Assembly (NCBI GenBank): GCA_964016885.1
Contig: OZ024753.1
Coordinates: 5,580,001-5,644,000, forward strand
Direction: 5' to 3'
Length of the DNA stretch: 64,000 nt
Origin: Eledone cirrhosa
Lineage: Eukaryota
The notes under the pieces were generated by a model that was not told the origin of the DNA, did not search any database, and saw only the letters and a program-made list of their open reading frames with translations. The translations under genes were made by a program, and so were the position numbers. Positions 2,103 through 60,167 of the stretch are shown here, in pieces. Positions within the stretch are counted from its first letter, which is position 1. The number at the start of each line of letters is the position of its first letter.

Positions 2103-2560
2103 ATCATTCCTGTTTGTCTGTTTCCAAAGCTTGCATCGTTCTTGTTCTTGTAACACTCCTTTGCTAAATCACTCGATATTATTTGTAAAGGTCAAAAGAT
2201 TGTCTTGGGAATAACAGATATCACGCAACTAACTATTCATTGGAAATCGAAATTCTTCGAACCAGTGAAAAAGTCCGCCTTTATTGGCATGTCTTATTTA
2301 TTAGAATATTTTAATAAAGCGTATAAGGGTTACAGATTACCAAGTCAAGCGTAGCACCAAGACATTTTAAATATTGGAATGAATATTTCATGATAAGAGA
2401 AAGAAGACACATCGAAGAGAAATACCATCACCACTAGAATGTATCCGACAAAAGATCTCGGCGTATAACACCCGGTTATGATAACGCCTCACGTTCGAGC
2501 TTATGGTTTACCTCCATTCTACTTACTGAATGAGCTAATGTGAATATCACACCTCACTTG

Positions 2561-2639
<79 letters not shown>

Positions 2640-2682
2640 ATATATAATGTATGTATATTTTTAGATATCTATATATATATAC

Positions 2683-2720
<38 letters not shown>

Positions 2721-3211
2721 AATAAGTATGTATCGACCAGTAATTTCTGAGGGAGCATATGCACACACATATACATATACGCGTCAGTATATGGAAAAGA
2801 ATTCTAGTCATATATACTACATAAAGTGTGTTTATATGTACTTTCCAAATGACTCCTACAGTTCTAATAAACAAGCACCTGTACGAGAACAACATCACAC
2901 AATCTCACAATAAATAAATCAATAATTAAATACATAAATTGGAATTCAATAAACGCCATCTTTGATAAACTGGTACCGAGCGAAATAGTTTGTACCTATC
3001 TAACGCACTCCACCCGGGGATGTGGTATCAATTTAAACATGTGAGATAACAGGTGGAAACAGGTAGATAGCTTGAATGGCAGCATGTTTATATCATTGGA
3101 GAACATTCTAAACGTTTTCTGAATGTTTTCCTCTTGAGGAGCTTTCTCATTCTTGACATAAAAATATATATATATTAAAAAAAACATAATGAAAACATAA
3201 AAGAAACAACA

Positions 3212-3283
3212 GGGGGATACCCAGGTTCGAACTGTGTATATTTTAATATGCAGTCGAAAGCCCTACCACTGAGCTGTATCCCC
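3212..3283 (-). pseudogene. tRNA-Cys(GCA) pseudogene
   Basis: Reverse complement GGGGATACAGCTCAGTGGTAGGGCTTTCGACTGCATATTAAAATATACACAGTTCGAACCTGGGTATCCCCC; anticodon and T stems are broken. Confidence 0.85.
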
Positions 3284-3367
3284 AATCTACCAGCGTTTTC
3301 TGCTTTAGATTACTTTATTTTAATTAGTGTGAGAAAAATATTTAAGAAAAAAAAAAAAAAAAAAAGA

Positions 3368-39619: not shown

Positions 39620-39795
39620 TTATTATCATTATTATTTATTTATTATTATTGTTGTTTGGATGTCAGTCATTGATGTTATTTAACTGGAAAGTTTGTTGAA
39701 ATGAATATCAAGCCGCTATCTGCAGCCTCAGATATTCAGGACGTATCAGAGTGTTCTTGCTGTTCCCAGCAAGCATGCCTTTTGTAGCCAATCTC
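39620..39795 (-). mobile_element. R4/Dong-like non-LTR element C-terminus, 3' UTR and (TAA)n tail
   Basis: LQKACLLGTARTL*YVLNI terminal motif followed by UTR and TAA repeats. Confidence 0.7.
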
Positions 39796-40175
39796 TTCGG
39801 AAGAACTTTCAGGCCGGGGCCTATGGACAACTTCCAGAAATCCCTGGCCTGGCAGGGCTACCGAGGAGCTTTGCCAGTTCGGGATAAACTCTACAGGCAT
39901 GGAGGTGCCGTCAGCCGGGCATGTCCGATATGCGCGCAAGGCGACGAAACCGTCCTGCACGCATTCGTCCACTGTCCGAGCATTGCTGACTTGTGGGTTT
40001 ATGTCGAACACCTGCTGTCACGTGTAGGACGGATCCAGCTATCAGCTGAGTCCATCGTGAGGATTACCCCGCCCTCTTCCTTTAGCCGGGAAGGGCAGGC
40101 AGTTTTTATCTGTCTGGTGGCCATGGCGAAAGAGATAGTATGGTGGACACGTTTGAAAGGGCTGAAGACGAGCAC
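39793..40175 (+). mobile_element. Tx1/L1-clade ORF2 C-terminal fragment (zf-RVT/CCHC)
   Basis: SLAWQGYRGALPVRDKLYRHG..RACPICAQGDETVLHAFVHCP..LW. Confidence 0.9.
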
Positions 40176-40258
40176 TATCCATTTCTTTTTGTTCAGCAAC
40201 ATTCCATCTCAGAATTCCCGCACTGTACCTAATAATAGACACAGCTAGGGAATTTATT
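40174..40258 (-). mobile_element. R4/Dong-like internal fragment abutting (TAA)n
   Basis: INSLAVSIIRYSAGILRWNVAEQKEMD motif. Confidence 0.6.
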
Positions 40259-40276
40259 ATTATTATTATTATTATC

Positions 40277-40830
40277 CCCTCAGTGGAGATTGCGTGGCTG
40301 ACGGCAGCCGTCCTCGCTGACGTTGAAGATTCAACAACCATACTCAACGTCATACGAATAAGACAGGAAAACTGGACAGGGTCGGGGATGGAGCTAATCA
40401 TCCAAGCAAACCATGAAAGCGTTGAGGCCATCCCCGATGTAATAGACCTGGACGACGGCAGCCATCTACACGTGACTGTCGAAGGTAGGCGCCCAAGGTG
40501 TCATGGATGCAGTGACAAGACGCACCTTAAGGTCCCAAAATAACCAAAACAGACACGCGCCCATCCCTTCTCCCCACGCCGTGCCCCGCAACTGGAGCAG
40601 ACAAGCAAACAAAGAACACAGTGGCAGAAGAGAAATCACCATCCACAACAACAAAAACACCATCTGTTCCACCACCCACAAAACCAATGGAAAGCATACC
40701 CATTCCTGATATAGCCAAATCGGACAAGGAGTGCGATGAGGTCGAAGAGTGGAGAACTATTCCAACAAAAAAAGGAAGAACTCCCTACTCTCATACCCCT
40801 CCCCCCAAAAAAAAGAGGAAGAAAGAACCT
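40277..40830 (+). mobile_element. Tx1/L1-clade ORF1 (gag-like) fragment, frameshifted
   Basis: WTGSGMELII..IPDVIDLDDGSHLHVTVEGRRPRCHGCSDKTHLK with a degenerate zinc knuckle; EEWRTIPTKKGR low-complexity tail. Confidence 0.7.
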
Positions 40831-40974
40831 TAAAAAAAATGAAAACTACCCCACCTCCTCCACCACATCAACAGCCCCCCCCGCCACCTACACCATCACC
40901 AGCACCACCACCAACACCACCACCACAGCCACCACCACTACCATCACCACCACCGCCGCCACCACCACCCTTAC

Positions 40975-41900
40975 CATGTACGTGGCCTGGGGTCGTCTTG
41001 GAAGCAGGGGCACCTGCTGAACGATCTCAGGTCGCTAAACATAGATGTGGTGGCCATCAGCGAGACAGAATCTCCGAGGCACGGGCCTTCACACCGATCT
41101 TCGGCGGCTACGATGTGTACGCATTTACCACCCGTCCTGGATCGGGGGGAGGAGTTGCTGTGCTTTTTCGGAGAGGTTTGGATCTCGCCATACGGGCCGT
41201 CTTCATGGACCCAGAAGGTAAATTGGTGGTGCTGGATATGACAAGCGGAGACGGGCAAGCTTTCAGGCTAGTGGCCGTCTATGCCTCGACAGGAGCAGGG
41301 CGGTCTGATTTCTTCCGGCGTCTGGAGATCTTTCTAGGAACGTCCTGCTCTTTAGTGTTAGTGGGCGACTGGAACGGGATCTTAGATGCACGCTGGGACT
41401 GTGTGGGATTAGCGGATAGGGGAGGAGGGTGCAAGAGCCTCACCAATCTGCTCAGGCGTTTTGAACTGTCTGACAGGTACCGATTGGATTTCCTGAATGT
41501 GCCACTGTGGACTTGGACAAACCGTATCGGGTCATCCAGATCATATCTAGATAGGGTATTTTGTAGGGAAATAGATAGGTCTAGCATAGGCTGTCCACAA
41601 TTCAAGATACTCAACTACACGGACCACACATTCCTGATCTGTGTGGTTGACTTAGATAGGCTTCATAGACAAGGACCCGGCTACTGGAAGCTAAACACGT
41701 CATTACCAGCACGCAAGGCCTACAGAGACCGGATTAGCGAACTAGTTAAGCGGGCGTTGACGGGGGCCATCGTCAACAACAAGTAGTGGTTTTCTCTGAA
41801 AAGAGCGATTAGAACAGAGTCCATTAGGTTTAGTAAGGCTTTAGCAATAGAGAAAAACAGCAGAGGGAGAACTAGTTATAACATTAGACGAGGAGAAGGA
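40975..41900 (+). mobile_element. Tx1/L1-clade ORF2 APE endonuclease domain (frameshift and stop; pseudo)
   Basis: xVRGL..IDVVAISET, GGGVAVL, RLVAVYA, VLVGDWN, SYLDRVF, TDH and GPGYWKLN motifs. Confidence 0.93.
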
Positions 41901-57202: not shown

Positions 57203-57714
57203 TGGAGGAAAAAGGGTGCAGATATCAATGTGTTATATCTAGTAGTATAGTATAGAACGATCCTAAATATTTGTTATTTTTTTTGTTCAAGAGGAATAAT
57301 TTGTTCTAAAAATAGAACAAGTAGAGGAATATAGATGGAACCAAAGAAAAGTAAAAAGTAGATAAAAAAATATATAGGTCAGAAAATTTGTGTAAGTATT
57401 GTATTGTGTTAGAGTGGTCAGAATGAAGCTTTACCTGTAGGGAATTTTATTTTCGAATAAGAAATCTCATTAATAATCTGGTTTTCTTAATAGGTTTAAA
57501 TGTATGTCTGTTAAAGTTTTGTTAGAGTGTCAATATAATGTAATATATAGTGCTTATTAACAGTTAATTATTTAAAACAGTTATAGGGATGAAATATAGG
57601 ATTGAATCTATGGAGTAATTCTAATAGCAAAAAATACACCCCCCCACACACATATATATATATATATATATATTCTTTTATATTTTATTTATTTATTTGT
57701 TTAGTTGTATTTAT

Positions 57715-58770
57715 AATACTTGAATGTCTTTCTAATTCTATAGTTACATGCGATAATTAATTCTTGTCTTTTATTTAATAGAATGTCTTTCGATTTAGTA
57801 ATTTCAAAATTTTCTTGGGAACATAGTCCACACTCTTTTCTATTGCCCTGACAAGAAATGGCTCTTTTGAGAATCTTCCAAATTAGGTTATAATTAATTT
57901 TCTTCTTTTTACAATTATTAACTGCTTCCGCTAAAGAAGTGGTATTAGCTAATCTTGTGTTTCGAAAACTGTGGGTGTGTGCATAAAATCTCGATTAAAC
58001 GGATTAGATGTGGATCCAATATAGGATTTATTAGAGTCCTTAGTGGTAATTATACATTTATACACTATATTATTAATTAAGCAATTTCCATTTAAGGGGC
58101 AATTACTTTTTATTCTACCGTTTGTACATAGGGTTTCAGATGTGCTTGCTATATTCCCAATAACAGTGCTAGTATTTGTATTTACATTTTTATATGAGAG
58201 AAGGGTTTGCGGTTGGGTGGTCATGGCTCGAAGGGTTGTTAGTTGGTGAAATTATAGGGGATATAGTGTTCATAGAATTATGGTTGTTTTGGAAGTTATT
58301 GGTCAGATTGGGTATGAAATTCTTAGTTCCTATTAAGGATGAGGAAGATGGTGGTTGGTTGTAGGCTGATGTATTGTGGTGGTGAGGTGAGTGAGTGGAT
58401 GTAACTGGTGGATAGGTAATAATATTCTGGTTATGCGTGGTAGTATTATTATAGTTAGTTTGTGTGTGGTGTGTTAGAAGTATACATGAAGCTTTTTTAC
58501 ATTTATAGTTGTTATATGCACTTATTTTTTGTTGTATATTGCTCGATGTGGAGTAAGAAAATTTTACTGTGTATCTGTTTAAGATTTCATGGTATTTGTG
58601 GTTAGTTGGGAAATGTTTATCGAGAATTGCAAAAAATGTTTTAGGGATTTGGCCCATAGTTTGCAAGTTAAATGGAGCATTATACCATGTTACGTTTCTT
58701 TTATGGTTTCTAATTGGTTTCCTATTGTTATGTTGGGTATGTCTAGAAGTTTGAGGGTAGATTTTGTTAT
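57715..58770 (-). mobile_element. Penelope-like element C-terminal region with GIY-YIG endonuclease (frameshifted)
   Basis: RNVTWYNAPF..ILDKHFP.NHKYHEILNRYTVKFSYST; CPLNGNCLINNIVYKC..SYIGST..; KSRFYAHTHSF..WKILKRA..CGLCSQE..LLNKRQEL. Confidence 0.92.
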
Positions 58771-58845
58771 AAGATGATACTATATTATTGTGATTGTTAT
58801 CATATTTTATATATATATATGTATATATGTATATATATATGTGTG

Positions 58846-58892
<47 letters not shown>

Positions 58893-59192
58893 TTCCTTTT
58901 TGAATTTGTTGAGCAAGATTTCTTATCTGAAAACGTGTGTTGAAACAGATATTGTTATACTTTGGGAGGGTCATGCTGCCAATAAAACACGCATGCGCAA
59001 ACCAAGCACACAACACACATCACACAAATATATATAAATAAATGAGTGTAACTTTACCAGATTCCTCGATGAAATCTTACGCGAAGAGCATATACCACAA
59101 ACACTAAAGGACTCAGCGCCTAATCTCGCTGAAACCGTCTCTTCAAGGCCACATAAATATATATATATGTATATGTGTATATATGTATATAC

Positions 59193-59267
<75 letters not shown>

Positions 59268-59276
59268 TACACACAC

Positions 59277-59310
<34 letters not shown>

Positions 59311-59314
<4 letters not shown>

Positions 59315-60003
59315 ACATACGTTAACCTTGGTCTTCCTCTTCTAGTGTGTTCATGTAGGGGCTCCCACGGGATCACTGAGTGCAATGTCAACTCTGGATG
59401 TCGGTGAGCATGTCCATCTAACCTCAGTCTCCTCTGTGTCATTTTTGAGCTGACTTTTGGGAGGCTCCCATACATCTCTGATTTTTTTATCCTCAGTGTA
59501 TACTGATTAATGTTCAGAGCCATCCTCAGCATTCTCGTGTAGCACCCATCCACCATCTGAGTGAGATTCTTGGTCAGTGTCCAAGTCTCAGACCCATACA
59601 GCAGCACAGACTCCACTACAGCAATGAAGAGGCGGACTTTCAGGTCTCTACGAAGGTCCGACTTCCACACCCATCTCAAGCTGTGGCACGCCGCCCAGGC
59701 TTTGCTCTTCCTCTCAACCACATCATCTTCCGTATTCCCAATCTTTGCTCCCAAATACAGGAAGTCCTCAACCAATTCCAGCGGCTTCCCGCCTACATTA
59801 GTGATCCCCTCTGGCTTCTCAACATTCTCTACCAGATATTTTGTTTTAGTCTCATTCATTCTCAGCACCACACTCATCGACACAGTCTCAACCTCCCGCA
59901 TCAAATCCTCTGCCTCCTTCACTGTATTTGTCACCAAAACTATGTCGTCGGCAAATTCAGCATCCAATACCTTTTTCGCCCTAACTCTCCTGCTCTGAGC
60001 CGG
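59311..60003 (-). mobile_element. RTE LINE RT C-terminal segment (inverted 5' part of a twin-primed insertion)
   Basis: [53 protein letters not shown], open for ~230 codons. Confidence 0.95.
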
Positions 60004-60106
60004 ACAGACACTGGTCTGTTGGAGACGCAGGATATGGCAGCGATAATGAGGGACAGAGACCGCTGGAGAGAACTCGTCCATGGATCTCGGGAATTTTACC
60101 CGCCTT

Positions 60107-60108
<2 letters not shown>
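60001..60108 (+). mobile_element. RTE LINE extreme 3' end (forward part) followed by (TA)n
   Basis: [35 protein letters not shown], the expected continuation of ..TYVD. Confidence 0.88.

Positions 60109-60167
<59 letters not shown>

Follow-up and report, generated by a model that had tools for sequence, protein, structure and literature searches.

How does the reading frame of a retroelement come to run into a TA tract on one strand and, from its other end, to resume on the opposite strand? This question is raised by a locus in the window, the 64,000-nucleotide stretch of Eledone cirrhosa DNA analysed here, for which the original prediction, made from the letters of the sequence, had proposed a 5' inversion by twin priming in an RTE-clade LINE inserted in (TA)n. 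The reading to which we assign a probability of about 0.85 is that a young RTE-like LINE has left in (TA)n a dead copy, truncated and inverted at its 5' end and likely generated by twin priming during insertion, and that about 30% of the sampled copies of the family are built alike. The locus lies on the contig labelled C13 in the 3.0-Gb assembly searched and is composed of the following parts.

59280..59312, unstranded: left (TA)n tract, pure TA, the left part of the target, within a compound TA/CA microsatellite at 59153-59312.
59311..60003, minus strand: inverted piece of 693 bp, family positions 2503-3195, comprising the end of the RT domain and the C-terminal region.
60002..60003, unstranded: inner junction, with GG common to both pieces and family bases 3196-3202 absent.
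60002..60108, plus strand: forward piece of 107 bp, family positions 3203-3309, ending in the ORF stop TAG (60106-60108).
60109..60165, unstranded: right (AT)n tract, pure, the right part of the target, in a microsatellite that extends to 60317.

The predicted geometry, a minus-strand segment against the left TA tract whose continuation lies on the plus strand and is followed by TA repeats, is confirmed by both reading frames. On the minus strand, from 60003 to 59311, an open frame of 230 codons for the RT and C-terminal region, with a weak RVT_1 match in the domain search, stops against the left TA tract; on the plus strand (60002-60108) the frame resumes and runs to its stop, after which (TA)n follows. 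Both pieces are collinear in 29 other loci, two of them with an insertion or deletion inside the forward piece, which excludes that the plus-strand piece belongs to a different family. The forward piece normally begins 7 bases past the end of the inverted piece, and alignment to uninverted family copies gave a loss of 7 nt (GCCCTAA, 3196-3202), the two codons or so that had been estimated. From the family majority the inverted piece diverges at 18/693 bases and the forward piece at 1/107. The overlap formerly placed at CCGG (60000-60003) exists, but it comprises the 2 nt GG (60002-60003) and not four, because intact copies have TAA, not CC, ahead of the forward piece; the R of the peptide RTDTG is a chance product of the junction. 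At the target junction the inverted piece overlaps the TA tract by AT (59311-59312), which likely marks the end of the second primer. Hence the suggested pairing of a left-end GAT with the TA target holds for the AT but not for the G, which is not shared, and a T-G wobble might be formed at the next base.

The copy is dead and without evident function. Its target-site duplication is unreadable because pure TA lies on both sides, and its tail is likewise indistinguishable from the tract. The 30-mer across its inner junction has a single occurrence in the genome. In Logan contigs from six runs, possibly of other individuals or species, the uninverted join is present and none of the contigs listed bridges this inner junction. 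Each of the two junctions of the copy overlaps by 2 nt, for which the chance expectation is 14-16%; both are thus within chance, and the case for twin priming rests on the family.

The exact 30-mer from the 3' end of the family occurs 5,360 times in the assembly, which therefore contains at least 5,360 copies. The main sample was taken from the first 100 of these matches, in the first 114 Mb of contig C1, with 4.8 kb of upstream sequence fetched for each; once two duplicates were dropped (L077 of L064 and L109 of L108), 98 independent copies were available, biased to young copies by the requirement for an exact 30-mer. The family unit measures 3,309 bp, of which about 210 bases form the 5' UTR, and has a single ORF of 1,031 aa in which Exo_endo_phos_2 and RVT_1 both score above cut-off; the domain search gave no match to zf-RVT or RNase H in the ORF. 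Immediately after the stop come 0-3 ATAG units, there being no 3' UTR beyond the (TAGA)n tail. Measured against one full-length copy, identity is about 97-98%. Of the 98 copies, 95 have TA repeats at one junction or the other and 83 have them on the 5' side, as against 14% at random flank positions; hence TA is the target and not merely a decayed tail. The 1,031-aa ORF is intact in 3 of the 100 sampled copies (L116, L151 and L152), and the family may still be active.

Membership in the RTE clade, as predicted, is supported by this architecture: AP endonuclease and RT in one ORF, the absence of ORF1 and a very short simple-repeat 3' UTR. RTE-clade elements have neither a C-terminal zinc knuckle nor RNase H. 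The marks of the L1 clade, that is, an ORF1 together with an ORF2 bearing a C-terminal zinc knuckle, and a poly(A) tail, were not found in the family, and the similarity of its ORF to L1 ORF2p reaches E 1e-30 only. Named protein relatives were found in ctenophores, sea urchins, amphioxus and octopus, and those of the endonuclease are annotated as 'craniofacial development protein 2-like', which we take to be of RTE origin. In L152 the endonuclease region is 72% identical to a sea urchin protein and the RT region 61% to a ctenophore protein, values that are high for such distant hosts and may possibly reflect horizontal transfer.

An inverted upstream piece adjoins the forward piece in 30/98 independent copies (95% interval 22-40%), and a strict count that leaves out two very large deletions and one 98-nt filler gives 27/98 (20-37%). 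The remaining 68 comprise 66 uninverted copies and two (L061 and L123, contig C1, near 0.37 Mb and 81.03 Mb) arranged head to head with a 3' tail at both target ends. Inversion thus affects about a third of the sampled copies and is no rarity, a scale that the original prediction had understated; the genome-wide count it called for was obtained for the sample, mainly from the first 114 Mb of one contig, and extrapolation to the family gives about 1,200-2,200 inverted copies. A separate set of 29 loci on six contigs, chosen for a long forward part and with 10/29 running off the locus edge, contained at least 8 inverted copies. Four micro-inversions found between the TA tract and the forward piece in the sense-junction listing indicate that short flips may be undercounted.

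C1 152037482, C1 265198964, C1 320309844 and C2 49229536: micro-inversions of 10-33 nt, the smallest twin-priming-like products.

A scan for micro-inversions in the 66 uninverted copies yielded only three matches of 9-10 nt, which were taken as chance. Among the forward pieces of L061-L160 none is shorter than 77 nt although the search required 30, and lengths from 77 nt upward are dense; copying by the first polymerase may in every case cover about 75 nt.

The junctions of the inverted copies follow common rules. In 22/30 the two pieces meet within 35 nt of each other on the RNA, the gaps in the other eight ranging from 59 to 2,051 nt, and in 12/30 a stretch of 1-30 nt is duplicated between the pieces. 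Overlap of at least 2 nt at the inner junction was found in 20/30 copies (null 0.164, p 1e-9). Extra bases are present there in 4/30 only (1, 1, 5 and 98 nt), none of them a TA run, and flank DNA is absent from the inner junction in 29/30; the 98 nt are foreign filler. Overlap with TA at the target junction was assessed in those 19 inverted copies whose TA flank is clean, the other 11/30 being excluded; it amounts to at least 2 nt in 13/19 (simulated null 0.138, p 8e-8) and to at least 1 nt in 18/19 (simulated null 0.46). Plain truncations with a clean flank show an overlap of at least 2 nt at chance level (5/29, p 0.33) and of at least 1 nt in 20/29 (p 0.009). Target duplications, unreadable in 24/30 inverted copies, measure 10, 12, 12, 12, 12 and 18 bp in the other six, the 18-bp one sitting in a TG run, and all six overlap the inverted piece by 1-5 nt. 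The twin-priming geometry proposed for the locus is thus backed, across the family, by junction microhomology and duplications of 10-12 bp, and also by the AU sites at which priming starts.

These sites were located with a pattern in which TA is followed, at a distance of 0-30 bases, by an antisense anchor, and which catches inversions starting at RNA positions 3186-3215. Among the 21 distinct loci listed, 12 start at 3189, where the site reads AUAU/GUAU, 7 at 3195, where it reads GAU and which is the site used by the copy in the window, and 2 elsewhere; 19/21 at two AU sites compares with 8/62 under a random-breakpoint null (p 2e-15). Twenty of these loci were fetched, the other being L115, already in the sample. 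The forward 3' piece lies next door in 19/20, the spacing between pieces is -15 to +41 in 19/20, and the inner junctions all differ. The hot-spot inversions are therefore independent events, and descent of these copies from one inverted master is ruled out. On the reverse strand, where each locus is listed once (forward counts are inflated by overlapping matches), 112 antisense and 127 sense junctions were counted between 3186 and 3215. Folding of the RNA 3' end, carried out without a shuffle control, gave no stable structure, independent of the folding window, that would explain the hot spots. The self-complementarity of the TA target is not supported as a cause of the high rate: pure TA lies on the left in 17/30 inverted and 24/66 other copies (p 0.08) and on the right in 16/30 and 32/66 (p 0.83), and primer ends other than TA also yield inversions.

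A control was provided by the window itself, which contains LINE pieces with zf-RVT and endonuclease matches that we take to be Tx1-like, the 3' end of this family having 1,676 exact matches in the assembly. The first 70 of the 1,676 gave 28 independent copies whose 5' junction is visible against a 2.2-kb reference and was judged by eye; other control copies extend beyond the reference, and the count covers flips within it only. An adjacent inverted piece was present in 2/28, one a 20-nt flip and the other a 97-nt snap-back, whereas the RTE-like family over the same length is inverted in 29/83 (p 0.004). An earlier set of 29 Tx1-like loci, most of them running off the locus edge, contained no twin-priming geometry and one fold-back. 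The contrast, drawn with one family, points only moderately to an element-specific cause. Tx1-like copies end in a (TTA)n tail and often have TTA on the 5' side as well, which suggests a second microsatellite-targeting LINE. Their pieces in the window (39703-41783, plus strand) stand in an unusual order, a 3'-cut zf-RVT piece preceding an endonuclease piece.

The same arrangement could have arisen after insertion, if a collinear 5'-truncated copy had later been broken both in the TA tract and inside the element and its front had been flipped. With one of the breaks in (TA)n, such an event would presumably give the same order and leave the flank seemingly unchanged, and the foreign filler of 98 nt between the two pieces of one copy would agree with it. 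However, a flip of this kind should carry TA to the inner junction, where no TA run is found among the few extra bases. The duplications around inverted copies are intact, the start sites are clustered at AU motifs, inverted copies, at 97.3% identity, are as young as plain ones, at 97.7%, and the Tx1-like family, which also resides in microsatellites, is inverted in only 2/28, all of which makes a later flip very unlikely. It is scarcely credible that the arrangement is an assembly artefact, produced where palindromic TA tracts or a repeat junction led to a local misjoin. The two flanks are of low complexity, an N gap lies about 2 kb upstream and no Logan contig listed bridges the inner junction, but the inner junction falls in unique element sequence with a clean loss of 7 nt and a single occurrence. 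Moreover, some 55 other loci with different inner junctions obey the same rules to the base, and so many independent copies make a local misorientation unlikely here.

An unlikely explanation, though less so than these two, is that only one primer was used, with the polymerase or host repair folding back or switching template while the first or the second strand was being made, and the top-strand end then annealing by microhomology to the inverted product. That plain truncations share at least 1 nt with TA more often than expected means that annealing of the target end also occurs apart from RNA priming, and the short duplications between the pieces of 12/30 inverted copies would also be compatible with a single primer. 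Nevertheless, a snap-back would mirror the forward piece, and the inverted pieces, 84-2,331 nt long, are upstream sequence absent from the forward piece. Overlap with the target end is far stronger in inverted (13/19) than in truncated copies (5/29), and the two head-to-head copies with tails at both ends require priming from both nicks.

Twin priming at this locus would then proceed as follows. The first nick would fall in the bottom strand of the TA tract and is likely made by the endonuclease of the element; the (UAGA)n end of the RNA would then prime a first cDNA, here of 107 nt, as suggested by the ATA shared at the 3' junction. Before copying ends the top strand is probably nicked about 12 bp away, a spacing taken from the duplications of relatives, the timing being conjectural. 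The freed top-strand end (...ATAT-3') likely pairs with the AU site at 3195, just upstream on the same RNA, in keeping with the site preference observed, and would prime a second cDNA of 693 nt in the opposite genomic direction, presumably by RNA-templated extension. The two cDNA ends were likely joined through their 2 shared bases, with loss of the 7 nt between them; the microhomology is observed and the repair route presumed. By sequence, a putative second-strand template switch with the same outcome is indistinguishable from RNA-templated priming.

The twin-priming model for 5'-inverted mammalian L1 is said to go back to Ostertag and Kazazian in 2001, and RTE-clade LINEs were reportedly treated by Malik and Eickbush in 1998. 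In the excerpts at hand of PMC2912911 and PMC2837659, twin priming is laid out with a geometry that the present one matches. As far as these partial sources go, mammalian L1 copies likewise comprise a forward 3' piece and an inverted upstream piece, with a small deletion or duplication between them and microhomology at both junctions. For human L1, the available part of PMC12350158 gives 1,047 inversions with 4,851 non-reference and 460 reference calls, and division of these counts yields a rate of about 20-22%, similar to the 22-40% found here. Target duplications of mammalian L1 measure 10-20 bp in the portions seen, and five of the six readable ones of the RTE-like family measure 10-12 bp. 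The family differs from mammalian L1 in having one ORF and no ORF1, a (TAGA)n end instead of poly(A), a length of 3.3 kb and a non-mammalian animal host; it also targets (TA)n, so that nearly all second primers share one sequence. In the part of PMC4245944 available, 5' inversion is seen with human L1 in human cells only, a single Nimb-2_DR insert excepted, and is tied to overhangs of 10-20 nt, a rule that the 12-bp duplication of the RTE-like family fits. RTE duplications peak at 10-12 bp according to excerpts of PMC4245944 and PMC6007223.

With the RTE clade as presented in the accessible text of Tay et al. 2010 (PMC2887409), the family shares a single ORF (about 1,000 aa in the clade) that encodes AP endonuclease and RT, a short 5' UTR, a simple-repeat 3' end, target duplications (6-12 bp in the clade) and many 5'-truncated copies. 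The insertion sites are described there as seemingly not sequence-specific, whereas TA is preferred here; apart from this preference, the architecture agrees with that description. No mention of 5' inversions was found in that text. The octopus element RTE-2_OV, with 1,109 aa, a zinc finger and 600-nt UTRs in the excerpt of PMC9115989, is not the family described here, and a look-up of terms in the available text of the octopus repeat papers PMC9115989 and PMC13282606 found no mention of inversions. The two head-to-head copies with tails at both target ends resemble the L1 dual priming of Meyer et al. 2010 (PMC2837659, seen in part), from which the copy in the window differs in that its second primer lands inside the RNA. 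Among the partly accessible sources no published description of twin priming in RTE elements was found, and key papers or supplements may mention it. The mechanism itself is already known; added here are a rate from a position-ordered sample, a comparison of the junctions with null expectations, the preference for TA as target and the hot spots of priming.

The available portion of PMC4245944 presents 5' inversion as a mammalian L1 trait, dependent on element and host alike. Here a LINE with one ORF and no poly(A) is inverted at least as often as human L1, and the Tx1-like family of the same genome seldom is, which points to the element's protein and to the duplication length. Moreover, since nearly every insertion is into TA, the second primer stays the same over the estimated 1,200-2,200 events, so that the choice of priming site and the timing of the second nick, long-open matters in LINE insertion, become testable from sequence. 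A wider reading, which we put forward tentatively and at somewhat less than even odds, is that twin priming is a routine second insertion route of RTE-group LINEs, set by the element and not by the host, and with no need for ORF1p or poly(A). In this family the single protein would cut both TA strands early, and roughly one insertion in three (some 1,600 copies) would be primed by it from both ends, so that the genome would amount to a base-resolution map of the landing of second primers on a LINE RNA, at AU motifs lying immediately in front of the first polymerase. RTE-1 is under development as a gene-writing tool, according to the part of PMC13708176 available, and inverted payloads would matter there. 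In repeat annotation, each inverted copy is split into two elements.

About 500 bp left of the insertion lies a broken element (57704-58792, minus strand) with a faint GIY-YIG match (E 0.036) and motifs that are presumably Penelope-like; its AT-rich stretch at 58000-58790, mitochondrial in look, was rejected as mitochondrial. At L004 (2317-2575) a second short copy of the RTE-like family lies directly behind the first and bears an inverted front of its own, of 20 nt.
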